Source of the DNA: Escherichia coli
Lineage (GTDB): Bacteria; Pseudomonadota; Gammaproteobacteria; Enterobacterales; Enterobacteriaceae
Direction: 5' to 3' (one strand)
Assembly (NCBI RefSeq): GCF_017348835.2
Contig: NZ_CP071375.1
DNA: 64,000 nt
A program made the position numbers and the translations under genes. The notes beneath the pieces were generated by a model. That model saw only the letters and a program-made list of their open reading frames with translations, did no database searches and was not told the origin of the DNA. Positions within the stretch are counted from its first letter, which is position 1. Each line of letters opens with the position of its first letter. Shown here one piece after another: positions 3,412 to 63,687 of this stretch.

Positions 3412-4117
3412 GCGGTTTGCCAGCTTGAGTCTTCAACGCTGGGAAGATGCGGCAAACGGCAAATCGGCATACCAGCCAGCCTATATCCGTCATGCACAGG
3501 CCAATTATGAAAGAGGAGAGGCTTAAGTTCTGGAACCCTGAACGAATAACGAGCACCGGAAAATCACTTCGTATCACTCAGATGCTATTTAACATAATAT
3601 ACATTATGCGCACCAATATAAACCAAGGGAGAATCTAGTCGTTGGCGGTCATGATTGTCCTGCTCATTAACAACGACCAAACCCCATATCTTACTCTTAC
3701 TTAATACCGTATTCCCGGCTTAACCGACCGTGCAACCTCAACACATTGGTTTCAACTGCCGTCACCACGTTCTCTGGAAAATCTGTCGGTAATGAAGTCT
3801 TCACGTTATCCAGTGCTGCCGGAATCATTCTGGCAAAGTCACTCAGGATTTCATGCATCTGCACTTCCGGGAATCTCAGCACCTTTGCTGTCGCCAAAAA
3901 ATGTCGCGGATAAATTTTATCGATTGCCGTTTTTTTGCCTTTGGATGCGTTAAGCCCCATTGCCAGTTTGAGATCGCTGATGTGTATTCCCGCGCCACCC
4001 AATACCGGAAATGCTGAAATGATGTCGTAAAATGGCGTGAGTCGATAACTGCCGCCAGCCTGAATAAATACGGAGAAGTTTTTTGCATGGCCATCCGTTG
4101 CGCCAATCAGTTCGCTG

Positions 4118-4547
4118 CATACCGGTCCGACCCCGTACTGCTCACGCAGCTTATCCAGCAGTGGCATTATTTTTTCCAGAGGCGGTCGAACTCCGCCTTC
4201 GCAAAATAAGCGGAAGCCTGGCGAAGGATATCGTTACTGCGGCGCAGTTCACGATTTTCACGTTCCAGCTCTTTCAGACGCTGACGTTCAGCGGTGGTGA
4301 GTCCACCATCACCACTCCCGGTATCCCGCTCATGCTGGCGAACCCAGACACGCAGAGTCTCCGGCGTACAGCCAATCTTTGGGGCAATGGAACAAATTGC
4401 CGCCCACTGTGAGTCATATTCATCCTGACTTTCCAGAACCATACGAATCGCCCGCTGACGGACTTCGGGGGAAAAACGAGTATTTTTAGTCATCCTGTTT
4501 ACCTCTTTCTCAGGGAGTTTAGTCTCCAGGATTTCCGGGGCGGTTCA
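4118..4547 (-). mobile_element. Truncated IS3-family element (IS629/IS1203-like): terminal repeat, complete orfA, first ~20 codons of orfB
   Basis: Bases 4118..4547 match the full copy at 56514..57823 (same end sequence, ending ggggcggttca); identity stops at 4118 inside orfB. Confidence 0.8.
4167..4493 (-). CDS. IS629-like transposase OrfA
   Basis: 108-aa ORF ([19 protein letters not shown]...), identical to the orfA at 57443..57769. Confidence 0.85.
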
Positions 4548-4841
4548 CAACGCTGTCTCGCCCTATTTCTGACAATAAATCAAACGGTTGTCTGGATTTG
4601 GCATGATAACGTTTAACGATCCGGTCACGTACAATCGGGCTATCGGGTAACAAGTTATCGAAGAAGTTAAATACGGCATCAGAGGTGATATTCCCCCTCT
4701 GCAATGGCAGCGAAAGTGACAACGGTCTGGCATAACGGCTGGCTAACCACTCCGGTGCATACTTAAAGGTGTGCGCGCCGTTGGCTAACTTCGTTAACTC
4801 GCCTACCCGCTGGTTGTTCATCCAAGTGACTAGTTTGGGCA

Positions 4842-5243: not shown

Positions 5244-5318
5244 AAAGGGAGGCTTTAAAAGCCGTTTGAAGTCGGCAATATTAAGCCGCATGCCATCTCG
5301 ACATGCGGCTTATACGGT

Positions 5319-8300
5319 TTACCAGCTATATTTCACTCCCAGCATGCCCTGAGTATCGCTATAGCCTTTATCACCTAGTTGCACACCGACATTCCCCCAC
5401 AGGCTAAGGTTGTTATTTACTTTCGCCTCAACCCCGGTACGTACTTCACCGAGATTACGCGCACCATCACGGCTTACGGTTTGACCATTCATCTTCACGG
5501 CGTAGACTTCGCTATTGTTGATCCAGTTCGCTTCAATGTAAGGCTGGAACTCACGCTGTTTACCATCGTCACGCTGGTGATGGCTATTCAGGTAGGTTTT
5601 CACCCCAAGTCGCGTTTGCACGTTTCCGTCGCCTTCCGTTTCAATGCGCGTTCCGTCTTTCCGGGTATGGTCAGAATCTTTCACACCCATCCAGGTGATT
5701 TGTACCTGTGGCTGGACGTACCAGGTATTCAGCGTCCCTTCGCTGCCACTAAATGTTCCCGCTTCAAAGGTATACCCACCCTCAACAGAGGCCGTCACAC
5801 CGCGAGAATCATAGTCGTCAGCAGAACGGTTATCGGAACTGACACTGTTATCAAACCAGTTATACAGCACCCAACTGTCAACATAAGCGCCGGTCTTATT
5901 CGCATCGTTCTGATACCAGGTCGCGTACAGCCCAGCGCTGTAACCGCTGATGCGCCCATCCGATTTATAACCCACACGATTACTCTGAGTATTACTGTGC
6001 TGATTGGCGTAGCCTGCCATCACGCCAAGATGCCAGCGATCCTGCGCGTTGCTACTCCACTGCGCCAAATCGCCGCCTAGCTGCAATACATAGCGGTTAG
6101 CCTGAGCATTTAGCTGGCCGTCACCGGTCCTGAAACGTTCGTGTCCCCCGACATGACGCATCCACATACTGCTTGCCGAACCCTGAGAAAGCCGTGAATC
6201 TGTATACTGCGGCTCACCCAGACGGTCGTGTAAGCGATGGCTAAACAGCGAGTTGGCTGCGGCAATGTTGCTGATATAGCTTCCGGCCTCCGGGCGATAA
6301 ACTGATGGGCCTTCCGGATCCACAACAGGGGGATTATTGATGGGATCGGGTGTATCCGCTGGCGTTACGCCGTCCCATTTACTGGTCAGATACCAGTTTT
6401 TCTCGTCATTCCCCTTCCCTTTAGCCAGCGTGTAGACGTAAGCCCCAGCTTCGACAGTTCCGGTGGTCAGCGCGAAGTTACCTGCAGAATTACCGCCAAC
6501 CTCAATGAGTTCAATACCGTTGACCGTTTGCGCACCGACGCCGCCAATGTTATCAACCCGAACGCGAGTGTTCCCTTGGGTATCGCCTTTCACGTTCATC
6601 TTATCGGTGGGTGAATTATCGCCGCCCAGCGTCGCGTTGAACGTTATCAGGCCATTGTTTCCGGTATAGTTGCCGTTAACGGTCAGTACATTCCCCGGTT
6701 TTCCTCCTTCACTGTTCATTTGAACCGTGCCGCCATTCTTCAGGTTGCCGCCGATTGTGGTTTTAGCGACACGCAGTGTCCCCCCAGACATAACGTTCAC
6801 ATCACCTGCAGTGGTGACATTTCCCGACATCACACCGCTGTTATGGATATTAATGTGTTGACTTACCGTATTAATGGCAGAGTCGGAACCGAAAGCAATT
6901 TCCCCCCCCCCACGATATCCGTCGTACCCTGATACGCCGAGGAATCGTTGTTAAGAGTCAGGATCCCGGTACCCAGTTTTGTCAAATCACCGCTACCGCT
7001 GATACTGTGCGTCATCGCCCAGCTACGCTCAGTGGAGATGGTGAGCAGGCCATTATTGATAACGGAAGCATCACCCAGGTTTTTCTGCTCGTTGACGCTG
7101 AGCGCGCTGCCTGTATCAATGTTGAATTGCCCCACAAAGCGGCTATTATCGCCATCCAGCTCTACATCTGTCCTGGCGGTTGCGCTCACGATACCCTTCC
7201 CGCTTATGCTATTACGCAGTTCGCCAGTCACGTTTTTTAGCGTTAACAGACCGTCATTGGCAATATTTCCTCTGCCTAACCCCTGCGTATTATCGAGGCT
7301 GACTTCCGCATTTGGGCTAACGCTGGTTAACGCATTGTAGCGTGCATTAAGCCCCTCAATAGCCAGCGTTCCCCCTGTAACATTCAGGTTTCCGCCACCT
7401 GTCAGTTCACCCTGACTGATCCCACCTTTGGACACCGTGGGAACCGTCCTGAACGCCCACCAATGAATATTCTTTGTTATTAATCAGTCCATTATTGGAA
7501 ATATTGACTTTGCCATTACCGAAATATCCATTATAGAGTCTGCGTACCGTGATGACAGAGTCTTGATCCTGCACATTCAGGGTTCCGACACCGGTGGCAT
7601 TGCCACCGATAATCGTATTTTCAGCCGTAATCAGTCCACCCTCGCGAATAGTCGCCTCCCCAGTTCCTTGATTACCAATTTGAAATTCAATTGAGGAATC
7701 GTTATTTTTCATTAGCCACTCGCCACCCTTTTCAACGACAACCTGGCCATTACTGCCCGCCTGATAGCCTAAAATGGCGACGATTGAACTCGTGACGTAA
7801 CCCTTATCCGTAATATTTAATGAGCCTGTACCGTAACTCCCTATTTCGAATAATTCGGTCGTCAAAACCGAGTCCTCTCCCTCAACATTAACCGTCCCGA
7901 CGCCTGCAGCTTGAGTACCTAATCTTAAATAGCCTCCATCGACGTGACCCTTCTGTTTAATATTCAGCGTCCCCGTTCCGGATTGACCCACATTTAAAGG
8001 CCTTGCATTATTTCCGCTATCATACAATCGCCAGGTGCCACCCAAAACATTAACGGTACCCTCCGAATCCTCATTACCGCCAATGACGCTGGTAGTAATA
8101 GTGGTTAAGGAGGCATTACCGCCAGCCAAAATATTAAGCACTCCAGTGCCATACCAGCCAACCAGGTAGGCATCATAAGCAACATCAGTATCAATATTGG
8201 TAATCTGACCATTATCAACTTCCAGACTCGCACCAGACGCTGAACCGCTTAGTGCCAGCAAAACACCCAGCGTCAATCTACTGAATTTCGTTGTCAGTCC

Positions 8301-8944: not shown

Positions 8945-10537
8945 CTATAACCCAGGCGCTTTCCATAACGACGTCGTCAGTCCATGATCAACCAGCCCCA
9001 ACTGATCCTGATAAACTGCCTGCCACTTATCGCGTGAATCCTGATAAAGTTCATGCTTTTCCGGGTCTGGTGTGTGCGTCCGTTCCCAGCGAACCAGGCG
9101 TTCTCCGGTTTCTGCCATTGATGAAAAAATTCCGGCACCGACGCCAGCTGCAATGGCACATCCTAATGCAGTGGCTTCTTTGACCACCGGAATATTGACG
9201 GGTAATCCCGAGACATCAGCGAGAATTTGACTCCATAATTTCCCTTTTGAACCTCCGCCAGCAAAAACCAGCGAGGTGGGATGAATATTCGAGAAATCAG
9301 CAATTTGCTGCAAGTTACACGCTGATACAATCGCCGCATTTTCTTCCAGCGCACGGAACAATGTCGCTTTGTTACATTTATCCGGGTCAATGGACAAGTT
9401 AATAAAGGAAGGTGCGGCGTGATACCAGGTTTTAAAGCGCATTCTGTCGGAGAATATCGGCATTACGCCCCACGACCCAGGCGGCACCCGACTGGCCATC
9501 TCTTCCAGCAGCGTATAGGTGTCGATGCCTAAACGTTCGGCAATCAGTTTTTCTTCGGCACAGAAAGCATCGCGGAACCAGCGCATGGTGAATCCGGTAA
9601 AAAAGCTTATAGATTCAGCTTGTACCATGCCAGGAATAACATGAGGATTAACGCGCACGTTCATTTCTGGGTCTGTCACCGGCGCGGCTAAATTTACAAC
9701 TTGCTGCCAGAATGTGCCGCCAAGAACCGCGGTTTGTGCCGGACGCACAACGCCTAACCCCAGGCAACCAAGCTGCACGTCGCCTCCTCCAACGACCACC
9801 GGAGTGCCCACCTTCAGACCGCAGAGTTCCGCCGCTTGTGAACTTACCACGCCCAGCAATGTGCCGGTTTCTTTGACAGGAGAAAGAATATCGGCACGCA
9901 GGCCAGCCATATCCAGCAATGCAGGTTTCCAGTCACGGATGGTTAGATCAAGAAGTCCCGTGGTGCCAGCGTTAGAGGGATCCACCGCAAGTTCGCCGCT
10001 GAGCATATAGGCCAGCCAGTCGCTGATCATGGTGATGGTTGATGCCTGACGGTAAATATCGGAACGATGGTGCGCCAGCCAAAGTAATCTGGGGATGGCA
10101 CTTAAAGCCAGTGTTTGTCCGGTCGCGCGATAAACTTCGTTTTCAAAGGTATTGTTGTGCAGTTCTTTAAGTTCGCTAACTTCACGCGCCGCTCTGGCAT
10201 CCACATTGGCGCAGGCCCAGATCGGTGTTCCTTCATTGTTATATAAAACAATGCCTTCACGCATCGAACATGCCGAAACGGCAGCGATATACTCCGGGGC
10301 TATGCCGGCGTTGTGCAACGCCTGGCGCATACACTCACACGCCAGTTGCCAGTTTTTGTTGAGATCAAATTCCATAGAACCAGGAACGTCCGGTACTGCC
10401 AGATGCCGCCACTCCGCCTGTCCCACTGCTATTTGATTGCCTTCCAGGTCGAATATCACAGCCCGAATACTTCCGGTGCCTGCATCCAGCGCCATCAGGT
10501 AGTACTTTGATTCTGAAGGGGTAAAGAGTCGAACCAT
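8945..10537 (-). CDS. lsrK: Autoinducer-2 kinase
   Basis: 530-aa FGGY carbohydrate kinase ORF; divergent from lsrACDBFG with lsrR between. Confidence 0.9.
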
Positions 10538-10615
10538 TAGATTATCCTCGGCTTATGCGTTCTGTCTGTTCCTCTATACGTTCTCCATCATTCCCGGTAA
10601 TAAGGTCATGCAAAT

Positions 10616-11569
10616 TTAACTACGTAAAATCGCCGCTGCTGTGTCCTGATCGGTAACCAGTGCGTTGATATAACCGCCTTTCATTGCAGCGGCAATTGCT
10701 TCGGCTTTATTTTCTCCCCCTGCCACGCCAACCCGGACGGGTATGGTCTTCAGCGCGCTTAAAGGTAAGCCAATCAGTTCGTTATGTATTTTGATATCCG
10801 TGACAACGTCACCTTTTGCATCAAAAAAGTAGCCTAAAATGTCGCCAACCGCCCCTTTTCGGCCAATCATTAACTGTTCGCCCTGGCTGATATAACCGGA
10901 GCGAATGATTGTCGCGTCGTCTTGTTGACTCACGGCCCCAATGCCGACAATCGCCACATCCGCTGCTTGCGCGGCTAGCAGAACATCTTTGACGCAATTT
11001 TCATTTTTTAGCGTACGGGCAATGTCAGCGGAGGATGCCCGCAACGGAGCCGGAATAATATTCACACTGCACGCCGCGTTAAGCTGCCCGATACCCGTCA
11101 TATAAGAACCGACGCCACCGGAGAGCGTGACCAGGCGAATTTGCTGTGACGAAATAAAACCACTTAAGCGTTGCAGCGTATTCATGGTTGCCTCGCCAAA
11201 ACCAATCGCCAGCATCTGTTGTGGTTGAAGTAAACTCATCAACATATGCGCCGCGCCTATCCCCAGTCGCCCGCCGACATCAGCATCCGCAAGCCCAGGG
11301 ATCACCCGGACATGTTGCAGCGAAAACTGACGACGTAAGTGAGTTTCATATTCCAGACAGCCTTCAAAGCGAGAATTAATCTGTACGCGAATAATGCCGG
11401 ACTGATGCCCTTTCTCCAGTAATCGCGACACTTTCAAACGTGTCAGGCCGAGACGATCGCTGATCTCGCTCTGGGTCAGCCCGTCGTGGTAGTAAAACCA
11501 CGCGATCCGCGCGACCTGTTCTTCTTCACACATTCCCTGTTCTGAAATTGCCGAATCGTTGATTGTCAT
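10616..11569 (-). CDS. lsrR: lsr operon repressor (SorC family)
   Basis: 317-aa ORF with N-terminal HTH and sugar-binding domain; position in lsr locus. Confidence 0.9.
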
Positions 11570-11817
11570 AATTCATTCTTCACTTTGAACATATTTAAAT
11601 CTTTAATGCAATTGTTCAGTTCTTGCGCATTTATATCTGTGATGGCAACCACAGTTTGACTCTACGAGCATGAACAAACGCAACCGTGAAAATCAAAATA
11701 GCATAAATTGTGATCTATTCGTCGGAAATATGTGCAATGCCCACCTAAGGTTATGAACAAATTAAAAGCAGAAATACATTTGTTCAAAACTCACCTGCAA
11801 AACTGAACGGGGGAAAT
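11570..11817. promoter_or_regulatory. Divergent lsrR / lsrA promoter region
   Basis: 248-bp AT-rich intergenic region between divergent lsrR and lsrA; individual binding sites not resolved by eye. Confidence 0.4.
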
Positions 11818-26578: not shown

Positions 26579-27693
26579 ATGGTTACGCCAGTAAGCATCA
26601 GCAATTACATATCTCTTCCTGAAGATTTTCCCGTACGTAATATTGCACCTCAGGTAAAAGAAGTTTTAAAGGATTTTATTGATGCACTTAGTACAATAAT
26701 ATGTGATGAAGAGTGGCGCACGTCTTTAAACATCAACTCAGCCACAAAAAAGATATTTAATAACCTTGACAACTTATCATATATTCAGAGGACTTCTTTT
26801 CGGGGTAACGACACGCTATACAATGAAAAGGTTCAGTTTAAACTCACTTATCCCGCCAGGAATGGAAGACACAAAGAAAATATTGAATTTCAGGTAGTAA
26901 TAAATTTAAGCCCTATTTATTTAGATAATTTCCGCCATGATGGAGAAATTAATATTTTTTGCGCTCCCAACCCAAAGCCTGTCACTATGGGGCGCGTATT
27001 TCAGACCGGCGTCGAGCGTGTGCTATTTCTGTTTCTGAATGATTTTATTGAACAATTTCCAATGATCAACCTTGGTGTTCCCATCAAAAGAGCGCATACA
27101 CCACATATTGAACCCCTGCCTCCGGATCACCATACCGCTGCAGATTACTTACGCCAGTTTGATTTGCTTGTCCTGAATTTTATCTCTCGCGGTAATTTTG
27201 TCATACTCCCCCGATTATGGAATAACTCTGAGGTTCACAGATGGTTCGTCAATAAAGATCCTAACTTGATCACCGCCATTCTCGACATAGCGGACAGCGA
27301 ATTAAAAGAGGATTTATTGCAAAGCCTGATGGATTCATTAGGTTCTAACAAACATGTACTACCCGAAGTCTGCATCTGCTTTTTATCCCTTTTAGCAGAA
27401 CAAGATTTTCCACATTTTCAGGACTTTTTTTATTTTTCGCCAATATGTTATTGCACTATCACCAATTTATGAATCCCAATGAAAGTGATTTGAATGACGT
27501 GTTAATGCCAGCATCATTAAGTGATGATAAAATTATCAAACATATGGCGCGCAAGACCCTCAAACTTTTTGTAAAAAATGAAACACCGCCAAAAGTTACT
27601 CATGAAGACCTGGTGAAAAACAGGCCTCGCTCCCCTGTCAGACCACCTATACCCGCAACCTCCAAAACGCCAGACATTCCTGATCGTCATTAA
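26579..27693 (+). pseudogene. yneK: yneK-like gene split by a frameshift (ORFs 26579..27472 and 27445..27693)
   Basis: Two consecutive ORFs in different frames (297 + 82 aa); both frames are open across a T-rich stretch at 27381-27436 that includes a T7 run. Confidence 0.55.
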
Positions 27694-29935: not shown

Positions 29936-30370
29936 GTGAAAAGTACCAGCGATCTGTTCAATGAAATTATTCCATTGGGTCGCTTAATCCATATGGTTAA
30001 TCAGAAGAAAGATCGTCTGCTTAACGAGTATCTGTCTCCGCTGGATATTACCGCGGCACAGTTTAAGGTGCTCTGCTCTATCCGCTGCGCGGCGTGTATT
30101 ACTCCGGTTGAACTGAAAAAAGTGTTGTCGGTCGACCTGGGAGCACTGACCCGTATGCTGGATCGCCTGGTCTGTAAAGGCTGGGTGGAAAGGTTGCCGA
30201 ACCCGAATGATAAGCGCGGCGTACTGGTAAAACTTACCACCAGCGGCGCGGCAATATGTGAACAATGCCATCAATTAGTTGGCCAGGACCTGCATCAAGA
30301 ATTAACAAAAAACCTGACGGCGGACGAAGTGGCAACACTTGAGCATTTGCTTAATAAAGTCCTGCCGTAA
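29936..30370 (+). CDS. marR: Multiple antibiotic resistance repressor
   Basis: 144-aa ORF starting at GTG; winged-helix MarR sequence. Confidence 0.9.
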   Translation: MKSTSDLFNEIIPLGRLIHMVNQKKDRLLNEYLSPLDITAAQFKVLCSIRCAACITPVELKKVLSVDLGALTRMLDRLVCKGWVERLPNPNDKRGVLVKLTTSGAAICEQCHQLVGQDLHQELTKNLTADEVATLEHLLNKVLP

Positions 30371-44588: not shown

Positions 44589-45192
44589 AATTCACAGGTG
44601 TTTTTTCCCATCCTGTGGTTTCCTTGGCGTTTTCTAGGTTTTTTCAGATAGTTGCATTTTTTAAAAAGCATCCTAAGTTCGATCTCAGTGTCTATCTGGG
44701 GCCTATTTCTGTCCCATATATGCCCCAAAAAAAACTCCCCAACAGATAAGTAGTTTTTTCATGGATTTATGCGTAAAATCAAGAACGGCTGGAAATCATT
44801 CAATACTCACACTATCGAAAAATTTACCAGCCAACCGCAGCACGTTCTTGCATAAGGCGTGTCTGCGGTTTTTCAACTATTCAGATACATCACTCCCATC
44901 ACATTCATTCCTCCGCATCAAAGGCATATAGGCTATATCACCTTGATATTTTTATTTTTCAGATAAAAACTGTTATCTATGTATACTTTTAAACCCAATC
45001 CGTGTAGAGTCTCTGCATAAGATAGTTTGCAGTTGCCGCTTCAGCTTGCGCCATAAATCGCCTGATTTTTGCTGCCACCTGTTAGCATTCCTGTATACCT
45101 GAAACGACAATGTTTATCTACGAACTTTAAGAACACCCAAGATAAAAATTGTCAACTATATCATATATAACACATTACTAATTCGAGGCTAT

Positions 45193-45306
45193 ATGAACAG
45201 CATACTGATAATCACATCTCTCCTTATCATATTCAGCATTTTTAGTCATGCCCTAATAAAATTAGGGATTGGCATATCCAATAACCCAGACAAAACCGAT
45301 GTATAA
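45193..45306 (+). CDS. Hypothetical small hydrophobic protein (37 aa)
   Basis: [37 protein letters not shown]; one predicted TM helix; weak ribosome-binding site. Confidence 0.3.
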
Positions 45307-45374
45307 GTCAACATATCCTGAATCAGACATACAATATCGCAATGAAAATCAATAATATTTTAAGGAATATCTTC

Positions 45375-45608
45375 ATGAAATCAAAAGACACCCTAAAGTG
45401 GTTCCCTGCGCAGCTTCCTGAAGTAAGAATTATCCTAGGGGATGCTGTAGTGGAAGTAGCAAAACAGGGAAGACCTATCAATACCAGAACATTGCTTGAT
45501 TACATTGAAGGAAACATAAAGAAAAAATCATGGCTGGATAACAAAGAATTATTACAAACAGCGATATCAGTTCTTAAAGACAACCAAAATTTAAATGGTA
45601 AAATGTAA
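45375..45608 (+). CDS. ydfK: Prophage cold-shock-associated small protein
   Basis: ORF starting MKSKDTLKWFPAQLPEVRIILGD after AAGGAA. Confidence 0.75.
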   Translation: MKSKDTLKWFPAQLPEVRIILGDAVVEVAKQGRPINTRTLLDYIEGNIKKKSWLDNKELLQTAISVLKDNQNLNGKM

Positions 45609-45924
45609 TATAATAAACTTACTTTTTTATCATTTTTCCACTTTAACAACATTTTGCTCCACTTTTCCACGACCAAACAACTTGAAATCTGGTTAAAATA
45701 ACACGCAACACTATTCTTCTTCCTTGAGTCCGCCCGGAACTCGAAAAACAAACCGAGTTAAAGCCATTTTTCACAAAATCGATTTTGGGTCTCACCAAAA
45801 TTACGGGGTTGCATACGCATTCGTTTATTTTCGAACGTGTACATACAAATATGCACAAAAATAATCAAAATTATTTTCTGAGATGCATTATGATATGAAC
45901 ACCAATTTCGTATAGAGTCTCACT

Positions 45925-46515
45925 ATGTCTCGAATTTTTGCTTACTGTCGGATATCAACGCTGGATCAGACCACCGAAAATCAACGCCGGGAAATCGAAA
46001 GTGCAGGTTTTAAAATCAAACCTCAGCAAATAATCGAAGAACACATTAGCGGCTCAGCAGCAACCAGTGAGCGTCCTGGTTTTAACCGGTTGCTTGCTCG
46101 CCTGAAATGTGGTGATCAATTGATTGTGACAAAACTGGATCGCCTTGGTTGTAATGCAATGGATATCAGGAAAACAGTGGAACAACTGACCGAAACAGGT
46201 ATCAGAGTGCATTGCTTAGCATTGGGGGGCATTGACCTGACCAGTCCAACAGGAAAAATGACGATGCAAGTAATTTCAGCAGTCGCTGAATTTGAACGAG
46301 ACCTTTTACTTGAACGCACTCATTCCGGGATAGTAAGAGCCCGGGGCGCAGGGAAACGTTTTGGTCGACCACCTGTGTTAAATGAAGAACAGAAACAGGT
46401 GGTATTCGAACGAATTAAGTCAGGTGTAAGTATAAGTGCCATTGCCCGGGAATTCAAAACCTCGCGGCAAACCATTTTAAGAGCCAAAGCAAAACTTCAG
46501 ACACCTGACATATAA
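45925..46515 (+). CDS. pinQ: Serine recombinase (DNA invertase/resolvase family)
   Basis: 196-aa ORF with N-terminal catalytic motif YCRISTLDQ and C-terminal HTH. Confidence 0.8.
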
Positions 46516-46612
46516 AAAATAATCTCGGTGTGAGATGCTTTACGTCTTCCAAGCCACCTTCCTTGCCGTAAATGGAAAGATACATCTAATTATAGAATTT
46601 ATATGTTTTACC

Positions 46613-47188
46613 CTACGGCAGTGCTGGCCATTCAATATCCTGTGCAGTTGACGTATCAACACGGTTCAGCAATACCCGATACTTTTTCCATGCTTCCAGC
46701 AACGAGATTTCTTCCTCCGTTGCAATTTCCAGATCTGCAGCATCCTGAAGCGGCGCAATATGCTCACTGGCTACCTGCATCAGGCTGTTTTTTGTTTCTT
46801 CCGCCTCCCGGATCCGGAACAGTTTTTCTGCTTCCGTATCCTTCACCCAGGCTGTGCCGTTCCACTTCTGATATTCCCCTCCCGGCGATAACCAGGTAAC
46901 ATTTTCCGGTAACGGACCGAGTTCAGAAATAAATAACGCGTCGCCGGAAGCCACGTCATAAACCGTTTTACCCCGATGATCTTCAACGAGATGCCACGAT
47001 GCCTCATCACTGTTGAAAACAGCCACGAAGCCTGCCGGAATATCTGGCGGTGCAATATCGATACTGTTTGCTGGCAGACCTGTATGAGGCGGAATATATG
47101 CGTCACCTTCACCAATAAATTCATTAGTTCCGGCCAGCAGATTATAAATTTTTATGGTCCGTGGTTGTTCACTCATTCTGAATGCCAT
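46613..47188 (-). CDS. tfaQ: Tail fibre assembly protein
   Basis: 191-aa Tfa-like ORF directly downstream of the tail-fibre C-terminus. Confidence 0.8.
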
Positions 47189-48741
47189 TATGCAAGCCTC
47201 ACAATATAGTTAAATGCGATGTTTTTGACGGTGTTTTCCGCGTTACCAGCAGCGTTAACGGTGATGGTATGTCCATGTGAACCAATCGCAACGGAGTGCG
47301 TATGAGCACCAATACCGACAGTATGTGCGTGTGCACCTGCGCTTGCAGCAGTACCCGATACAGAGTGCGTATGAGCGCCTGCAGAAGAAGTGTTAACACT
47401 GTATTTAGAGTAATCAGGTGATCCACTTCCCGGAGCACCACTGGAACCACCTGAAACAAATGTCATCGAATGGGTATGTGCACCGGCTGAAGCAGCCGTA
47501 CCGCTAACACTATGGGTATGCGCACCAGTGTTATTCGTGGATTTAGTGCCGTAATCAAACGACGATGTGGTTTTCGTCCCCAAATCCGTACTGGATACGC
47601 TGGCGCTGTGGGTGTGTGATTTAATGCCGTCCTGTTCCTGAGACAATACGGCTCGATCACTGGCGGGCTTGCCCTTAATCGTCCAGCCACGCATATCCCC
47701 TTTCGTTTTCATCCAGTCTTTGACAATCTGCACCCAGGTGGTGAACGGGCTGTACGCTGTCCAGATGTGAAAGGTCACACTGTCAGGTGGCTCAATCTCT
47801 TCACCGGATGACGAAAACCAGAGAATGCCATCACGGGTCCAGATCCCGGTCTTTTCGCAGATATAACGGGCATCAGTAAAGTCCAGCTCCTGCTGGCGGA
47901 TGACGCAGGCATTATGCTCGCAGAGATAAAACACGCTGGAGGGGTCATCCGGCGTCCATTTGAGGCCAAACGGCGTCTCTTTGTCGCCAAATTTAAGATA
48001 CTGCTCCTCCCCGCAGTGCGGGCAGGCAACATGAAAACGCATAAAATGCGGGGATTCACTGGCTGCACGCTCAATCTGGCAGGTGCCTCTCACTTTGGGC
48101 GTGGAGCCACGGATGGACTTTGGCCAGACCGAGCCTTCAATACGTTTGTCGCCAAGGAACGTCGGAGAGCCTTCCTGTTCAATATCCTCATCAAAGGCAG
48201 CAAGTTCATCATAACCCGCCACATCCACCGACTTTTCACGGTAGTTTTTTGCCGCTTTACCGCCCAGGCACCAGAAGCCACGACCATTGGAAAAACGCTT
48301 CATAGTGAGCGTGTTATCCCGGTGCTTTTTGCCATACCACGGAGCCAGCGCCAGCAGCGACGGAATATCGCGGATGGTCGGCTCAACGTGGGTTTTCATA
48401 AAGTTCTCGGCATCACCATCCGTCGGCAACCAGATAAGTGTGTTGCGCTGCTTATGCTCTATAAAGTAGACATAAACACCCAGCAGCATTTTGGAATAAC
48501 CGACACGGGCAGACTTCACCACATTCACCTCACGGATGTAGTCGCTGCCCATCGCATTCATGATGGCCCGCTGAAAGGGCAGTGTTTCCCAGCGCCCTTC
48601 CTGGTATGCGGATTCTTTCGGGAGATAGTAATTAGCATCCGCCCATTCAACGGCGGTCTGTGGCTCCGGCCTGAACAGTGAGCGAAGCCCGGCGCGGACA
48701 AAATGCCGCAGCCTGTTAACCTGACTGTTCGATATATTCAC
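47188..48741 (-). pseudogene. stfQ: In-frame fusion: lambda gpA-like large terminase N-terminal ~350 aa (47694..48741) joined to a side tail fibre C-terminus (47188..47693)
   Basis: ORF starts [23 protein letters not shown]... (lambda A) to ...[10 protein letters not shown], then switches to His-rich tail-fibre sequence ([20 protein letters not shown]...). Confidence 0.8.
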
Positions 48742-49261
48742 TCAGCAACCCCGGTATCAGTTCATCCAGCGCGGCTGCTTTGTTCATGGCTTTGATGATA
48801 TCCCGTTTCAGGAAATCAACATGTCGGTTTTCCAGTTCCGGAAAACGCCGCTGCACCGACAGGGGGATCCCGTCGAGAATACTGGCAATTTCACCTGCGA
48901 TCCGCGACAGCACGAAAGTACAGAATGCGGTTTCCACCACTTCAGCGGAGTCTCTGGCATTTTTCAGTTCCTGTGCGTCGGCCTGCGCACGCGTAAGTCG
49001 ATGGCGTTCGTACTCAATAGTCCCTGGCTGGAGATCTGTCTCGCTGGCCTGCCGCAGTTCTTCAACTTCCCGGCGCAGCTTTTCGTTCTCAATTTCAGCA
49101 TCCCTTTCGGCATACCATCTTATAACGGCGGCAGAGTCATAAAGCACCTCATTACCCTTGCCACCGCCTCGCAGAACGGGCATTCCCTGTTCCTGCCAGT
49201 TCTGAATGGTACGGATACTCGCACCGAAAATGTCAGCCAGCTGCTTTTTGTTGACTTCCAT
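48716..49261 (-). CDS. nohA: Terminase small subunit (lambda Nu1 homologue)
   Basis: 181-aa [45 protein letters not shown]...; overlaps the A start as in lambda. Confidence 0.9.
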
Positions 49262-49450
49262 TGTTCATTCCACGGACAAAAACAGAGAAAGGAAACGACA
49301 GAGGCCAAAAAGCCCGTTTTCAGCACCTGTCGTTTCCTTTCTTTTCAGAGGGTATTTTAAATAAAAACATTAAGTTATGACGAAGAAGAACGGAAACGCC
49401 TTAAACCGGAAAATTTTCATAAATAGCGAAAACCCGCGAGGTCGCCGCCC
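49262..49450 (-). other. Lambda-type cos site: cosN 12-nt cohesive end at 49439..49450, cosB region between cosN and nohA
   Basis: Minus strand reads CCGACAGGTTACG-GGGCGGCGACCT-CGCGGGTTTTCGCTATTTATGAAAATTTTCCGGTTTAAGG, the lambda end junction, then a lambda-like region up to the Nu1 start. Confidence 0.85.
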
Positions 49451-49649
49451 CGTAACCTGTCGGATCACCGGAAAGGACCCGTAAAGTGATAATGATTATC
49501 ATCTACATATCACAACGTGCGTGGAGGCCATCAAACCACGTCAAATAATCAATTATGACGCAGGTATCGTATTAATTGATCTGCATCAACTTAACGTAAA
49601 AACAACTTCAGACAATACAAATCAGCGACACTGAATACAGGGCAACCTC

Positions 49650-49844
49650 ATGTCAACGAAGAACAGAACCCGCAGAACAACAACCCGCAACATCCGCTTT
49701 CCTAACCAAATGATTGAACAAATTAACATCGCTCTTGATCAAAAAGGGTCCGGGAATTTCTCAGCCTGGGTCATTGAAGCCTGCCGCCGGAGACTAACGT
49801 CAGAAAAGAGAGCATATACATCAATCCAGAGTGATGATGGATGA
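49650..49844 (+). CDS. Small prophage protein, YlcI/YnfO-like
   Basis: 64-aa basic ORF immediately beyond cos. Confidence 0.5.
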   Translation: MSTKNRTRRTTTRNIRFPNQMIEQINIALDQKGSGNFSAWVIEACRRRLTSEKRAYTSIQSDDG

Positions 49845-50094
49845 ACATCCCGGTTTCTTTACCTTCCCTCCCTCCCCGCACAGAACTGGCGAGCGTGAGG
49901 GACCAATATGTGAGCCATAAATGCCTTATCTTCAGAAATGCAGTTGGTATCCGAACAGGACGATATTGTAAATTCACCTAAATACGAGGCATTGCTGTAG
50001 TTGAATTGCAGTACTGTATTAGCCTGACAGTGACAGAATACGATATTGACTCTGTCACTTGTGAAATGGTCAGAATGGTTAGCAGTTATGGTGA

Positions 50095-50301
50095 TCAGTC
50101 AACCAACAGGGAATAATCCTTCGTATTCTTATCGTGCTTTACTAACGCGGCCTCAATTGCCCTGAATGCTTCCAGAGATACTTGATGTTCTATACATGCA
50201 ATTACAACATCCGGGTAACCCATCGAAATGGTGCTATTAAGCATAGTTTTTACACGAACCTGCTCCTGGGAGGGGGCATCAATGTATTGATCTTTATGCA
50301 T
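50095..50301 (-). CDS. Hypothetical prophage protein
   Basis: 68-aa ORF; function unknown. Confidence 0.4.
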
Positions 50302-50596
50302 TTTGTCGCTCCATTCGTTTGCTCTTCACTTGCGGCTAAAAATATAACGTCAAATCACTCAGCATGAAAGAGTGAAAGTTTCAGCGCGTTTCCCTTACAT
50401 AATCTGTCGTTTGTATTCTCTTCAGGCATACCGGAAAGACTAGGTATTGTCACACAACCAATACCATCGACAATCGAGATTTATATCTATTCGGTAATGT
50501 TTAAATATAACAAAACCCCGTAAAAACGAGGTTTATGGGTAATTTGTATTGTTGAATAGCATCTGATGAGAAATTGATGCTAATACTATAAACATG

Positions 50597-50770
50597 CTAG
50601 ATTAAATCAATCTTGATATCATAGCTTTCAAGACCAGTCATTTTTTCCCGTGCAGTAAACTGGATACTGGTAACTTCTTTCCCGGTCTTTTTCTTAAGCT
50701 CAATGATTTTTTTTGTTATATATTCAGAAATATCTGCTTCTGTTTTTGTTTTTAACTCTTCAATGTTCAT
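50597..50770 (-). CDS. gnsB: GnsA/GnsB-family protein
   Basis: 57-aa ORF MNIEELKTKTEADISEYITKKIIELKKKTGKEV...ESYDIKIDLI; GAGG ribosome-binding site. Confidence 0.7.
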   Translation of the reverse strand: MNIEELKTKTEADISEYITKKIIELKKKTGKEVTSIQFTAREKMTGLESYDIKIDLI

Positions 50771-50942
50771 CATTTCCTCTTTTAGTCTGTTATGACTGTC
50801 CTGGTACACAGTAGTGTCAATTATATGGAGCAAACGTATAAAAGATAAGATGAAACATCGCAATAATCAACATACGACGGTCTAAATTTCACACAAACAG
50901 ATAAAAATGATTATCATTTATTATCAATGCATTAGAATCAAA

Positions 50943-51173
50943 TCAATTCAAGAGTCTCATTGCTGCTTCCAGAATTTCTTCTGAAGTTACATGTCGATCC
51001 GCTGCTACATAAATGACTTTATGATCTCCGGTCAGAGATGGAAACCCTGCAGCCATTACAGTGAGGTGTGTTGTTTCGCCATTTGGATATTCACGCATGA
51101 TGGTGTTAACTCCGGTCATCACTGGCACTACCATTGCTGGTTCAGAGTTAAAAAAAACTATTATTTTTTTCAT
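50943..51173 (-). CDS. Small prophage protein (YnfN-like); start codon uncertain
   Basis: ORF 50943..51212 with several possible in-frame starts. Confidence 0.4.
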   Translation of the reverse strand: MKKIIVFFNSEPAMVVPVMTGVNTIMREYPNGETTHLTVMAAGFPSLTGDHKVIYVAADRHVTSEEILEAAMRLLN

Positions 51174-51444
51174 AATGTTACCGTAATATGTGAGTATCCA
51201 TCGACTAGACACTAAGCAAAAAAGCTCCCGAAGGAGCCTTCATTTTCACTTTCTTAAATCTAACGACAGATGGCTAACATTTAAGTATTGTGAAATATTA
51301 TCAAATGTAATCATCATTGATTTACAAAAGATACATTTTGCCCCGAAAGGATTTCTGTCAGAAACATCAAAAGATGATGTTCTATACTGAGAACCATGGC
51401 AACACGGGCATCTAAAGTGAATATGGTTTGTAATATTTTCTACC

Positions 51445-51657
51445 TCAAAGTGCCACTACATGAACAGCTGCAGGGCCTTTAGGTCCGTTCTCAATACCAA
51501 ATTCGACTTCCTGATTCTCAGTTAACGTTTTGAAATCGTTGCTCTGAATAGCTGAGAAATGCACAAACACATCTTTGCTACCATCTTTCGGCGTGATGAA
51601 ACCAAAACCTTTTTCAGGGTTAAACCATTTCACTAAACCAGTCATTTTGTTAGACAT
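51445..51657 (-). CDS. cspI: Cold-shock protein
   Basis: 70-aa cold-shock-domain ORF ([21 protein letters not shown]...). Confidence 0.9.
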
Positions 51658-52020
51658 CATTATTACCTTTTGAAGAAGTTAGCCCTTGGGCAGAATGGTC
51701 CGAAAAAAAATATCAGAGAGAAAAACCAACAAGGAAATCTCAAGAGGTACAAATAATAAAATTATAACAATGACTGCTTCAGATAATTTTGTAACAAACC
51801 AGAACACCATTAACGCATGATTAACCAACCATAGCAAGGATTACTTTTGTAAAGAAAAACACACGAATGAAACAATAGCTTTATTTATTAATAAAACGTG
51901 TCATTCTGTCTAATGACCTTTTATCTTACCCTTAAGATTTCAAGGATTTTGACTCATGGAAGAGTCCTTTTTATTTAAATTTCACATTCAGCGCTAAAAA
52001 TAATCCGATTTAATATTAAT

Positions 52021-53050
<1,030 letters not shown>

Positions 53051-53163
53051 GGATATTTATCAGGATTTATCGGCTTCAAATCCCCGGATATGTTAAATCT
53101 TACCTCACCAGTGATGGGCACTGGCGGGAGGAGGATGTCAATCTGATAAACACAGAGGTGACT

Positions 53164-53424
53164 ATGGATTACACAAATCTACCAAAACAAACTTTTGCTG
53201 ATTTAATCGCACTCAGGCAAGCAGTCGTAGCTCTAATCAACTTGTTGCCGGAGAAGGAAAAGGAATTAGTTAAAGCGCTTCTTAACAGAACTGCCGCCGA
53301 TTTTTCATCATATCCACTGACAGATGACCTTGCGGACCTTCCTGAATTAATTGCAGCGTCCGCCATTAAGCTTACTGAAGAGATTTACCCTCCTCAAAAA
53401 TCTTCACAAAATTCCTGCGAGTAA
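53164..53424 (+). CDS. Hypothetical acidic protein on the opposite strand inside the lysis cassette
   Basis: 86-aa ORF from ATG at 53164, preceded by AGAGG at 53153-53157; helical acidic sequence; no homologue recognised. Confidence 0.4.
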   Translation: MDYTNLPKQTFADLIALRQAVVALINLLPEKEKELVKALLNRTAADFSSYPLTDDLADLPELIAASAIKLTEEIYPPQKSSQNSCE

Positions 53425-53923
53425 CTTCAATGCAATAATCGTAAAACGCCGCAAACTGCTCATCGCGGCGTTTTTTTTCATCTTCAGAAGGAATCAGCAC
53501 CGACAATTTTTTATTCAGATCAGCGACGCTGCCCTCCAGTTTTTCAATGGGCGATTCAATATCATCTTTTTCTGACCGCAATGCCGTCGGTGGCGTCTTC
53601 AGAGAACCAGTAATTCTTCCCGGTAGCTTTCCTTTGTAGGTTATCCACACATTCTGCGCCTCTAAAATTATGGGGCGCTTTTCCGGCGACTGCTCATCCC
53701 CTTCACATAACCCGGCAGCAACATCCAGGAAGACCTGTCTGATGCTCATTCTGGCTGCTGCCTCATAAAACTCCAGCGCGGCACCTTCAACACGGTCCAG
53801 CGAGATGTCCAGGTCAAAAATTTCACCGTCAAAGCGTTCTTTGTCCTGTAATGCTAAAGTTACCGTAACTTTATTCTCAAAATTGCGGATCCCTTTCACA
53901 ATCAGTTCATAGTTTTGAGTCAT
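53372..53923 (-). CDS. Prophage protein between holin and endolysin (YdfR-like position)
   Basis: 183-aa ORF; same position as K-12 ydfR, but that gene is recalled as shorter. Confidence 0.5.
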   Translation of the reverse strand: MTQNYELIVKGIRNFENKVTVTLALQDKERFDGEIFDLDISLDRVEGAALEFYEAAARMSIRQVFLDVAAGLCEGDEQSPEKRPIILEAQNVWITYKGKLPGRITGSLKTPPTALRSEKDDIESPIEKLEGSVADLNKKLSVLIPSEDEKKRRDEQFAAFYDYCIEVTRRNFVKIFEEGKSLQ

Positions 53924-53927
53924 TGAA

Positions 53928-54143
53928 TTACTCTCCTCTCGCAGCCTTACGCCTGTCTTCTTTAATCTTGAAATAAAGATTTGTCAGATACGTCAGCAGG
54001 CCAAAAACCAGGCTACCCAGCACACCGATTGCAGCCCACTGTGACGGAGTTACTTTATCGAGTAACTGCAATGCCCAGAAACCAGCATTACCCGCCGATG
54101 TGCCATAGGCAACACCTGTTGTTAACTTATCCATTGATTTCAT
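53928..54143 (-). CDS. essQ: Holin (phage-21 S-type pinholin-like)
   Basis: [71 protein letters not shown]; two TM helices and a charged C-terminus. Confidence 0.85.
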
Positions 54144-54363
54144 ATCCTCACCCCGATGTACACGGATGGTGCAATATGTTTGAAAAGATCGGAGTCTACG
54201 GGGTAGTTTTGACAGCACACGTTGTTCTCAACGGCGCTAAAGAAACATACACATTAAAAATGTGAGTAATTATTTTTTAAAGAAAGTCATATATAAAATA
54301 ATAATACGAGAAATGTTTTCATATTTAGTGTACTGTATACGGCCATTTATACAGGAAAAGCCT

Positions 54364-54534
54364 ATGTCAGAACGTAAAGACTCAAAATCACGCCGTAATT
54401 ATCTCGTTAAATGTTCCTGCCCAAACTGCACCCAAGAGTCAGAACACAGTTTTTCAAGAGTACAAAAAGGTGCCCTTTTGATCTGCCCTCATTGCAACAA
54501 AGTATTCCAGACAAATCTTAAAGCTGTAGCCTGA
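54364..54534 (+). CDS. Small zinc-ribbon protein (56 aa, two CxxC pairs)
   Basis: MSERKDSKSRRNYLVKCSCPNCTQESEHSFSRVQKGALLICPHCNKVFQTNLKAVA; ribosome-binding site AGGAAAAG. Confidence 0.55.
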   Translation: MSERKDSKSRRNYLVKCSCPNCTQESEHSFSRVQKGALLICPHCNKVFQTNLKAVA

Positions 54535-54593
54535 TTGATTTTATTAGTAACAAGTATTTTTTATATTTTAATAATATATTTAAAGCAGATAAT

Positions 54594-54617
54594 AAAAAAC
54601 CCGCCTGAGCGGGTTTG
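54594..54617. terminator. Bidirectional intrinsic terminator
   Basis: A-run + CCCGC-ctga-GCGGG + ttt. Confidence 0.7.
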
Positions 54618-54897
54618 AGATTGTGGTGCTTTTTGTGGGAGTCATCCACTTACGCACTTTGTTTTGCCATGCCAGCAGTTAGCTTCTGCTGTAAAACTAT
54701 TCATGCAGCAAACCTGCACTTCACCACAATGGTTAGCATACTTTTCCTGATTAAGATTTTGCCAAATATGCTGGCCATTGTTTCATGTATTGGACCTCCT
54801 TAATTTTCATTAAAGAGATCCAATATTCACTACTCTGTCCGTATCTCTACTCAGGCATCAGCCTTCTTCGTTATCGTATACAGACGAGCGATGAATT

Positions 54898-55113
54898 TTA
54901 ATCAGTAATGATGACATTTGCTGCTGCAGGACCTTTAGCACCACTCTCTATAGAGAAGGTAACCTTTTGACCTTCAAATAAGGTTCGATAATTATCATTC
55001 TGAATCGCAGAAAAATGCACAAACACATCTTTACTACCATCAACAGGAGAAATAAAGCCGAAACCTTTATCAGCGTTAAACCATTTTACTAAACCAGTCA
55101 TTTTATTTGACAT
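54898..55113 (-). CDS. cspB: Cold-shock protein
   Basis: 71-aa cold-shock-domain ORF. Confidence 0.9.
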
Positions 55114-55411
55114 TCTACATTCCTTAACTTGAGCCTTTCGGCATAAATGGTTTGCATAACAGAAACGACTTCGTACTTAATTGGAGAGACTCAAAGAAGG
55201 AATAAGTGAATAACACCTGAAATGAGAACTGCTTTAGTAAACTACTTCGTATATCGTCTGTTCTTCAAACCGACGCAGTCATTAACTCATAGTTGAACAT
55301 ATGAAGCAATGTTTATTTTAGACATCCAGCCACCTTCAACCCTATCAAAAAAGTAGTTTTCTCCAGGAACGTGTGTATGGTGCACCAGGTTATCAGTATT
55401 AAGGAGTTTTT

Positions 55412-55625
55412 CTGTCCCCTAAAATGACAGGAATTGTCAAAAACTTTGACTACAAAAGCAGCAAAGGTCTTATATTCCCATCCGATGGCGTATCGATGCC
55501 CAGCTTCACGTTTCAGCTCTCAATCTTCGAGATGCAGAAGAAATTACCACAGGATTACGCGTGGAATTTTGCCGGATAAATGGTTCGCGTGGACCTTCAA
55601 CTGCCAATGTTTATCCCGGGATGAG
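55412..55625 (+). pseudogene. cspF: cspF/cspH-like cold-shock gene with a frameshift
   Basis: N-terminal MTGIVKNFD...PSDG is in one frame; the rest ([42 protein letters not shown]) is in another frame that runs on to 55950. Confidence 0.45.
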
Positions 55626-55656
55626 ATTCAATATCTCTATTGCCCCATTTAAAGCA

Positions 55657-55690
55657 CAAAAACCCGCTTATAAGCGGGTTTTCTACTTTT
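55657..55690 (+). terminator. Intrinsic terminator
   Basis: aaaaa-CCCGC-ttataa-GCGGG-tttt. Confidence 0.7.
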
Positions 55691-55788
55691 TTCTAAACGT
55701 CGGATACACAAAGCCCATCGTTGAGAAAATCTTATCCATGTTTTTTGAAAAATGCAAACATCATGTCGCCATCTTCAGCAAAAATCAT

Positions 55789-56513
55789 TTATCTCGTCAC
55801 CTTCCTCAATTGCGCTTCCGCGTATGCTTCTTCCTGCCAGCACTTTGTTACCAGTTTACCAATGACGTCAGCATACCCCTTATACCACTGATAATCGGTC
55901 AGGTCTGGTACCAGCTTCTGGACATGACGTCGTGCCAGCGTGGTCGGTAAACGACTAAACCGGTTTCCATTACAACGCCCACAAATCTTATATACCGGTA
56001 CGCCATGAAACCGGGTTCTTTTTTCATCCAGAACAATCCCTTTACCCTTACACCCTCTGCACGCTGTGCTGACTTCGCCCTTACCATGGCAATGCTGACA
56101 TAGTTCCTTTACCCATTCTTCCTTGATTACAGATTCCCCGCGTCTGTAGTGTTTCACCACTTCGCGCAATACATTATAAAATCCCGTACCTGAACAATGC
56201 TCACAGCGAGCCTTACTTGCCGCAGACCTAGAGTAATCAGCAAAGGCAAAATTCACGAGGTAAGGAATAATCTGTAACCGGATTTCTTCACTCAATTTGT
56301 TCAATGTCGGGTTATCCAGTGCCATCGCGTAATTTAGCAGGCCTTCAATCGCAAACTGAGGGTCCTGAACACCAACTTTTGCCAGAAATAAGGCCAACCC
56401 AAGTGGTGCTTTCGACTGCACCATCCCCTGCGCTGCCATTACATCCGTAATTGTTAAACAACCGGTGCCTGTCGCTGGAGCGTCATCGCTCAATTTTGGA
56501 GATTTTGGGGAGT
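55789..56513 (-). CDS. quuQ: Late-gene antiterminator Q-like protein with four CxxCxGxG zinc motifs; 5' end removed by IS629
   Basis: 234-aa ORF starts at TTG 20 bp from the IS end; frame is open right up to the IS boundary at 56514. Sits upstream of the cold-shock morons and lysis genes. Confidence 0.6.
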
Positions 56514-56555
56514 TGAACCGCCCCGGGTTTCCTGGAGAGTGTTTTATCTGTGAAC

Positions 56556-57443
56556 TCAGGCTGCCAGATCATTATTTCCGATGGAAGCATAATAAGCTTT
56601 TTCTGCTTCTGCCGGAGGAATATGGCCCAGCCTTTCCAGCAATCGTCGATTGTTATACCAGTCCACCCACGTTAGTGTGGCCAGTTCCACTTCTGTCCGG
56701 TTTTTCCAGCTCTTACGGTGTATTACCTCCGCTTTGTAAAGACCATTGATGCTCTCAGCCATCGCGTTGTCATACGAGTCGCCAGTACTCCCTGTTGATG
56801 CCAGTAATCCGGCTTCCTTAAGCCGCTGCGTGTAGGCCAGCGATACATACTGAGAACCTTTATCACTGTGATGGATTGTGCCGGACGGCCGACGGGCCCA
56901 CAACGCCTGCTCCAGTGCATCCAGCACGAATGTTGTTTCCATGGATGATGAGACCTGCCATCCCACGATGTATCCGGCGAACACATCAATGATGAACGCC
57001 ACATAAACGAAGCCCTGCCATGTGCTTACCCAGGTAAAATCAGCCACCCACAACTGGTCTGGACGTTCTGCCACGAACTGACGGTTTACGCGGTCGCATG
57101 CGGCAACGGCTTTCCGGCTGACGGTAGTGCGGACCTTTTTACCCCGGAGAACACCGGCAAGTCCCATAACTGCCATGAGACGTGCCACAGTGCATCTGGC
57201 CACTCTGATACCTTCCCGTAACAACTGACGCCAGACTTTACGCACACCGTATACCTGGTGATTTTCATCGTATACGCGCTGTATCTCTTTCTTCAGCCAG
57301 TCATCGTGCTGCGCACGGGCACTGCGTTTATCCGGATGATGTCGCTGTTGCTGACAATGGTAATACGTTGACGGGGCAATATGCAGTTCGCTGCATACCG
57401 GTCCGACCCCGTACTGCTCACGCAGCTTATCCAGCAGTGGCAT
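56556..57443 (-). CDS. IS629-like transposase OrfB (DDE); expected to be made as an OrfAB fusion by -1 frameshift
   Basis: 295-aa ORF; A-rich slippery stretch (GGAAAAAATAATG) at the orfA/orfB overlap. Confidence 0.9.
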   Translation of the reverse strand: MPLLDKLREQYGVGPVCSELHIAPSTYYHCQQQRHHPDKRSARAQHDDWLKKEIQRVYDENHQVYGVRKVWRQLLREGIRVARCTVARLMAVMGLAGVLRGKKVRTTVSRKAVAACDRVNRQFVAERPDQLWVADFTWVSTWQGFVYVAFIIDVFAGYIVGWQVSSSMETTFVLDALEQALWARRPSGTIHHSDKGSQYVSLAYTQRLKEAGLLASTGSTGDSYDNAMAESINGLYKAEVIHRKSWKNRTEVELATLTWVDWYNNRRLLERLGHIPPAEAEKAYYASIGNNDLAA

Positions 57444-57769
57444 TATTTTTTCCAGAGGCGGTCGAACTCCGCCTTCGCAAAATAAGCGGAAGCCTGGCGA
57501 AGGATATCGTTACTGCGGCGCAGTTCACGATTTTCACGTTCCAGCTCTTTCAGACGCTGACGTTCAGCGGTGGTGAGTCCACCATCACCACTCCCGGTAT
57601 CCCGCTCATGCTGGCGAACCCAGACACGCAGAGTCTCCGGCGTACAGCCAATCTTTGGGGCAATGGAACAAATTGCCGCCCACTGTGAGTCATATTCATC
57701 CTGACTTTCCAGAACCATACGAATCGCCCGCTGACGGACTTCGGGGGAAAAACGAGTATTTTTAGTCAT
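57443..57769 (-). CDS. IS629-like transposase OrfA
   Basis: 108-aa ORF identical to 4167..4493. Confidence 0.9.
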
Positions 57770-57874
57770 CCTGTTTACCTCTTTCTCAGGGAGTTTAGTC
57801 TCCAGGATTTCCGGGGCGGTTCATTAAAGATTTTTTTGTGCATGCCGATAGTGCTTTTTTAAAAGGAGAAATCT

Positions 57875-58207
57875 ATGTCTGTCACAATTCAGGGAAATAC
57901 CTCAACCGTTATTTCAAACAACTCCGCCCCGGAAGGAACATCAGAAATAGCCAAAATCACAAGACAAATTCAGGTGCTGACTGAAAAGCTTGGGAAAATC
58001 TCATCGGAAGAGGGGATGACGACACAGCAGAAAAAAGAAATGGCTGCATTGGTACAGAAGCAAATTGAAAGCCTCAGGGCTCAACTGGAGCAGTTGTTAA
58101 GGCAGCAGGCAGAGAAAAAGAATGAAGACGCGACAGTTCAGCCTGATAAAAAAGAAGAGAAAAAAGACGATACAAATACCGCTGGCACCATTGATATTTA
58201 CGTCTAA
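57875..58207 (+). CDS. flxA: Prophage protein FlxA
   Basis: 110-aa ORF MSVTIQGNTSTVISNNSAPEGTSEIAKITRQIQVLTEKLG... with ribosome-binding site. Confidence 0.7.
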   Translation: MSVTIQGNTSTVISNNSAPEGTSEIAKITRQIQVLTEKLGKISSEEGMTTQQKKEMAALVQKQIESLRAQLEQLLRQQAEKKNEDATVQPDKKEEKKDDTNTAGTIDIYV

Positions 58208-58221
58208 GTGACAGCCGTATT

Positions 58222-58245
58222 GTGGCCCTCATCGGGCCACTTTTC
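58222..58245 (+). terminator. Intrinsic terminator after flxA
   Basis: GTGGCCC-tcatc-GGGCCAC-ttttc. Confidence 0.75.
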
Positions 58246-63615: not shown

Positions 63616-63687
63616 TGTTCAACTGTCGCCGGTTGTGACTGGTATTCTGCAACCGGCGCTCGTCTGATGTAAGAGATAAAGAAATCG

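Follow-up and report, generated by a model that had tools for sequence, protein, structure and literature searches.

A recent two-step frameshift pseudogene of yneK in Escherichia coli, very probably one of several recurrences of slippage in the same T run

In a 64,000-nucleotide stretch of Escherichia coli DNA, here referred to as the window, two open reading frames (ORFs) lie in different frames where the single gene yneK would be expected. This raises the question of whether yneK is truly interrupted in this strain and, if so, by which sequence of events the interruption arose. The two ORFs of 297 and 82 aa that had been described in an earlier note on this DNA are both present (Table 1). 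The stretch over which the note had found both frames open, 27381-27436, is contained in a longer co-open stretch, 27349-27472, which includes a T7 run that is the longest homopolymer within yneK. The assignment to yneK likewise held, and the split-ORF pattern is not due to chance, since together the two ORFs align with a single known gene along its whole length and are located between ptrR (yneJ) and ydeA. The position is conserved, and the locus order sad, ptrR, yneK, ydeA and marC is that of other E. coli.

A query with the 1301-nt region matched 5,417 of 5,426 complete E. coli genomes, the top match being the pig strain PE164 (NZ_CP114128.1) at 100%. The PE164 pseudogene (LZG51_RS12535) is 100% identical to the window over the gene and occupies identical coordinates within the region, and PGAP labels this sequence 'putative protein YneK, frameshifted'. 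Intact orthologues consist of one uninterrupted 1116-bp ORF of 371 aa (K-12-like, 042, F2_81 and TB06052), and the window yneK runs into a stop after codon 297. The closest sister sequence, which carries a run of eight T residues (T8) and equals the window apart from one T, matched the NCBIfam model NF033404 (YneK, equivalog) over positions 1-371 of 371 with 807.7 bits at a cutoff of 40. Judged from these sequences, the window yneK appears to be a pseudogene of the YneK family and not a functional member. Independent translation of the 82-aa ORF is unlikely, as the bases read upstream of its ATG show nothing like a Shine-Dalgarno sequence. A scan for promoters and terminators yielded no signal exceeding shuffled expectation and detected no terminator in the yneK-ydeA interval.

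Table 1. Features of the yneK locus, in window coordinates
Feature	Position	Strand	Description
yneK pseudogene	26579..27693	+	1115 bp, compared with 1116 bp and 371 aa when intact; syntenic between ptrR and ydeA
Upstream ORF	26579..27472	+	297 aa: 284 native residues (with L283F) and a 13-residue out-of-frame tail, YFSPICYCTITNL
C-terminal coding remnant	27430..27693	+	stranded in the -1 frame; native codons 285-371 plus stop
Downstream ORF of the mechanical ORF list	27445-27693	+	82 aa, start ATG 27445
T7 run, frameshift site	27425..27431	+	located by alignments; probably derived from T8 (F2_81), itself from ancestral TTGTTTTT
T6 run, second slippage site	26955..26960	+	intact in the window; T5 (frameshift) in ~627 other genomes
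A6 run, third slippage site	27573..27578	+	intact in the window; A5 in strain 13C1079T

The lesion was located by alignment. K-12 yneK (b1527, UniProt P76150, NF033404), which lies at the same locus between ptrR and ydeA, shares ~98% nucleotide identity with the window gene, which would encode the same 371-aa protein if one T were put back. Compared with K-12, the window gene is one base shorter, is frameshifted at codon 285 and carries L283F. The K-12-like and O157 references read CTTGTTTTTA where the window reads CTT-TTTTTA, with one base missing. The alignment to K-12 proposed in the earlier note thus returned the single-base frameshift in the T run that the note had suspected, and this is the sole indel inside the gene. 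The continuous ORF of K-12, which the note had regarded as a finding against a split gene, shows only that the window strain carries a mutation. The slippage substrate, on the other hand, had to be refined: the K-12 site is TTGTTTTT, without a T run. Taken by itself, the K-12 alignment would resemble the deletion of the G, creating the T7 run. As a separate difference from K-12, the window carries a 1-nt T insertion at 27703 in the intergenic region between yneK and ydeA; this extra base offsets the one lost from yneK and leaves the 1301-nt region as long as that of K-12.

A different picture emerges from the nearest intact relative, the pig strain F2_81 (NZ_CP043542.1). At this site F2_81 reads GAC TTT TTT TTA, that is, T8 with L283F, and it encodes a 371-aa protein. 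Within yneK, T7 versus T8 is the sole difference between the window and F2_81; the flanks differ by 1 SNP over 4.3 kb of ungapped alignment, and across the 31.5 kb that the two share the T-run indel is the sole indel. T8 is still intact in F2_81 and also in six contigs from draft or Logan assemblies, and at each of these six loci T8 was read at the DNA level. The ancestral site is GAC TTG TTT TTA, and TTG is present in the next relatives (TB06052, OZ197100 and 042) as well as in K-12 and O157. On the window's haplotype (haplotype A), the public collection has the intact T8 protein in 151 indexed blocks and the truncated product on 13 contigs, so that T8 is the prevailing as well as the ancestral state of this lineage.

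The two steps demonstrated by this comparison are a G-to-T substitution turning TTG TTT TT into TTT TTT TT, which brought about the tolerated L283F change together with an uninterrupted T8 run, and the subsequent loss of one T, from T8 to T7. The T was most likely lost by strand slippage in DNA replication; in E. coli, indels are known to concentrate at mononucleotide runs (PMC8510543). As translation demonstrates, the frame then shifts at codon 285, which is the first residue deviating from F2_81 YneK, and a stop 13 codons further on leaves the 297-aa product without the 87 native residues of the conserved C-terminus. In this strain, yneK is most likely non-functional. The order of events on the window's haplotype was inferred by parsimony and by analogy with a second flanking haplotype (haplotype B). 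The window yneK is therefore best described, with high though not complete confidence and on sequence comparison, as a recent, real and inherited two-step pseudogene that is one of several recurrences of the same slippage.

The G may alternatively have been deleted directly from ancestral TTGTTTTT, the T8 of F2_81 then representing an independent G-to-T change or a later, frame-restoring gain of one T. Like the preferred sequence of events, this is a two-event history (loss of the G, then gain of a T in the F2_81 lineage), and it is what the K-12 alignment alone would suggest. However, it requires two independent hits on one nucleotide in sister lineages that are 1 SNP apart. In addition, T8 is far more common than T7 on the haplotype by the block and contig counts given above, and on haplotype B T7 is nested inside T8 clades. 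With T8 as the majority state of the lineage, direct deletion appears less parsimonious than slippage of T8, and we regard it as very unlikely. That recombination brought in T8 or T7 from haplotype B was also considered and rejected as improbable, since the tract would have to fit between the haplotype-A-specific SNPs at 27412 and ~27492, that is, into less than 80 bp.

The T8-to-T7 change is not confined to the window's lineage. The yneK genes of O104:H4 (2011C-3493), 55989 and UK_Dog_Liverpool show the same change at the same nucleotide positions and are likewise labelled 'frameshifted' by PGAP. These and other yneK pseudogenes differ from that of the window in having the other flanking haplotype and mostly a second, upstream T6-to-T5 change, and are of independent origin. 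Counts of exact 61-62-nt matches had made T7 and T8 each appear private to one genome, which turned out to be an artefact of haplotype-specific flanks. Starting from strains annotated as 'frameshifted', the second haplotype was found with T7 in UK_Dog_Liverpool and TKEC21-17 and with T8 in E2865. Taken from identity bands of short BLAST queries, and hence approximate and specific to each haplotype, the population counts for this second haplotype are ~751 of 5,426 complete genomes with T8 (including O26, O103 and ATCC 8739) and ~346 of 5,426 with T7 (including the O104:H4 outbreak strains and 55989). In at least three places, a tree built from the flanks of 14 sampled sequences puts T7 beside a T8 sister: in the pair of the window and F2_81 (1 SNP apart), in the pair of S1 and ATCC 8739 (2 SNPs apart), and in a T7 clade of 55989, O104:H4 and 13E0767 that is nested among T8 strains. 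Among these 14 sequences, T8 to T7 thus appears to have arisen independently at least three times. Furthermore, all four combinations of T6 or T5 with T8 or T7 exist, a distribution that calls for repeated mutation or for recombination inside a 470-bp interval.

Recoding would offer a way to keep the interrupted gene useful: the transcript could gain one U by transcriptional slippage, or the ribosome could slip by -1 on the U7 run, so that a leaky gene would give useful amounts of full-length YneK. With either an added U or a -1 shift on C UUU UUU, the product would be precisely the F2_81 protein (D-F-F-L-F-F-A), and a modest hairpin of -16.9 kcal/mol begins 7 nt downstream. Transcriptional slippage at A/T runs that rescues frameshift alleles has been documented (PMC1088944). 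However, a run of 7 nt falls short of the 9 nt at which selection against slippage-prone runs typically shows (PMC1088944), and the hairpin does not clearly stand out from shuffled sequence (z = -1.75, equalled by 11 of 200 shuffles). The site is neither an in-phase X XXY YYZ heptamer nor an A/T run of ~9 nt or more: in the zero-frame context C UUU UUU the phase of the heptamer does not allow perfect tandem re-pairing, the first position being mismatched after a -1 shift, and the P site would read CUU. Nor is a frameshifted organisation conserved among the orthologues examined, several of which are single ORFs, as stated above and also in OZ197100, T-HYM1 and ATCC 8739, with T7 being derived and recurrent. 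Finally, T7 occurs also in lineages already broken upstream by T5, and thus has the character of a neutral mutation rather than of a recoding site that is being maintained. A rescue of the window yneK by recoding is very unlikely.

We regard it as similarly improbable that the run serves as a contingency locus, in which reversible switching between T8 and T7 would turn yneK on and off as an adaptive phase variation. Both tract lengths do occur among very close relatives, in the three T7/T8 sister pairs or clades of the flank tree, and both are common in the population; moreover, the presence of yneK has been statistically associated, without a mechanism, with adherence to bovine recto-anal cells (PMC11540155). 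A tract selected for reversible switching throughout the species was not found. Most E. coli carry the interrupted, stable TTGTTTTT: wherever the site was read in genomes without an exact match to the T7 or the T8 query, it was TTGTTTTT, and the stable interrupted tract was present in all seven sequences read that lack both T7 and T8 (TB06052, OZ197100, 042, K-12-like, O157 and T-HYM1). A T9 allele was sought on the window haplotype and not found, and no clear reversal from OFF to ON was seen. Since T5 has already inactivated many of the T7 and T8 copies, tract changes in these are neutral, and the irreversible lesions of yneK, deletion and nonsense, indicate decay and not regulation. A still more specific proposal would be that the T8 created by L283F is a mutational on/off switch of an Escherichia-specific orphan influencing host-cell adherence, with the T8-to-T7 losses, and possible reversions, being host-selected instead of neutral; this we consider a long shot.

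The preferred reading, slippage of an inherited T8 run, presupposes that T7 is present in the genome and not only in the assembly. The exact 297-aa truncated product was called on 13 contigs from independent assemblies and projects, including drafts and a Logan assembly, and all three contigs inspected carry T7 on the same haplotype. Over ~6.9 kb, these differ from the window by 1 SNP (GCA_019365205.1), 5 SNPs (GCA_002229695.1) and 2 SNPs (Logan assembly of ERR14374684). The RefSeq PE164 sequence also has T7. Across the 64 kb, it differs from the window by 6 SNPs, by a C10 versus C11 run at 6901 and in IS content, which is why we consider the window to be another assembly or isolate of the PE164 lineage. 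Since T7 occurs on the same haplotype in independent assemblies at 1-5 SNPs from the window, these assemblies point to a real, derived allele of a sub-lineage, and sequencing error is essentially excluded; of the two causes that the earlier note had left side by side, slippage stands and sequencing error falls away. That the true genome is T8 and the homopolymer was under-called is barely credible, for although T8 to T7 is typical of long-read homopolymer errors, one further homopolymer (the C run) differs in length between the window and RefSeq PE164 and T7 on the window haplotype is found in just 1 of 5,426 complete genomes, the truncated product recurs on the 13 contigs, the three examined being T7 from distinct isolates, and no other indel occurs across the stretch shared with F2_81.

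Slippage in the T run is only one of the ways in which yneK has been lost. In addition to the T6-to-T5 and A6-to-A5 changes listed in Table 1, O157:H7 yneK carries a nonsense codon (E263*), strain S1 yneK has an additional early stop, and in ~1,155 genomes yneK is deleted to a remnant of ~100 bp. Many truncated YneK clusters exist in protein databases, for instance a 258-aa form of Shigella sonnei with 3,818 members. At least a third of the complete E. coli genomes are without an intact yneK. yneK has hence been inactivated repeatedly across E. coli, by at least five different lesions, and this general pattern of decay indicates that the gene is dispensable in many lineages.

The protein itself offers few clues to a function. 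The sole family for YneK is its own NCBIfam equivalog, NF033404, and no Pfam domains were found in YneK or in either fragment. Where the source is named, relatives retrieved by a word-index search come from E. coli, Shigella sonnei and E. albertii only, and an exhaustive HMMER search of 1.84 billion representatives returned fragments at 55% identity or more and no remote homologues. The GC content of yneK is 39%, compared with 47% for the window. YneK thus appears to be a low-GC orphan limited to Escherichia and Shigella. Taken together, the repeated inactivation, the low GC content and the genus-restricted distribution support the view of yneK as a dispensable orphan gene. The truncation removes constrained sequence, since some residues of the lost C-terminus do not vary even in a homologue of 68% identity and the dN/dS of intact copies is 0.13-0.34. 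An AlphaFold2 model built on a shallow alignment of 8 sequences was too poor to be used (mean pLDDT of 41.9); its helices at 280-332, predicted at low confidence, provide at most a weak hint. In the literature, YneK is described as uncharacterised, and knocking out yneK made no significant difference in a validation of CAST host factors (PMC12757027).

In its general features, the window yneK resembles other homopolymer-slippage pseudogenes, with a 1-nt change in a run of at least 7 and recurrence at one site; it is unusual only in that the run was first made by a substitution beside a T5 run. It is an ordinary frameshift pseudogene of this kind and is already recorded in public annotation (RefSeq). 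What is added here is modest, namely that the lesion is real rather than an assembly error and that it arose in two steps, a substitution making T8 and the slippage of that T8. Pangenome association studies on the presence or absence of yneK (e.g., PMC11540155) should take such frameshift alleles into account.

The comparison with PE164 and F2_81 also revealed a number of differences elsewhere in the window. The C run at 6901 lies in an autotransporter gene (within 5318-7445) that is annotated as frameshifted and partial, and could represent a second hypermutable tract or assembly uncertainty. Copies of IS3-family elements at 4108-4548 and 56514-59107 mark IS-associated structural differences from PE164 and F2_81, and hipA is interrupted in the window and PE164 and intact in F2_81. 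The lsr operon for autoinducer-2 uptake is present from lsrK through lsrB in the window (8945-16401) and in PE164; in the otherwise near-identical F2_81 lsrK-lsrB is deleted (window 8945-16401 corresponding to 9412-9823 of the F2_81 stretch, L006). A diguanylate-cyclase gene at the yneF/dgcF position (21225-22643, minus strand) is annotated as an internal-stop pseudogene in PE164 and F2_81, and the window differs from PE164 at 21336 within this gene.

Close to yneK, the window has a synonymous A at 26369 in ptrR where PE164, F2_81 and all three draft or Logan assemblies have G; this A is private to the source of the window. In marR (29936-30370), the base at 30355 results in a K140N change of MarR relative to F2_81 and the common allele WP_000843419.1; K140N is shared by PE164 (MarR WP_207184209.1) and GCA_019365205.1 and absent from GCA_002229695.1. 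At 29912, in the mar operator/promoter region 24 nt upstream of the marR start codon, the window has T and PE164 has C. A Qin-like defective prophage occupies 45000-64000 and contains many frameshifted or partial genes (rrrQ, cspF, an ISEsa1 transposase and a methyltransferase). SNPs relative to F2_81 are clustered in the tfaQ region, a pattern that suggests recombination.
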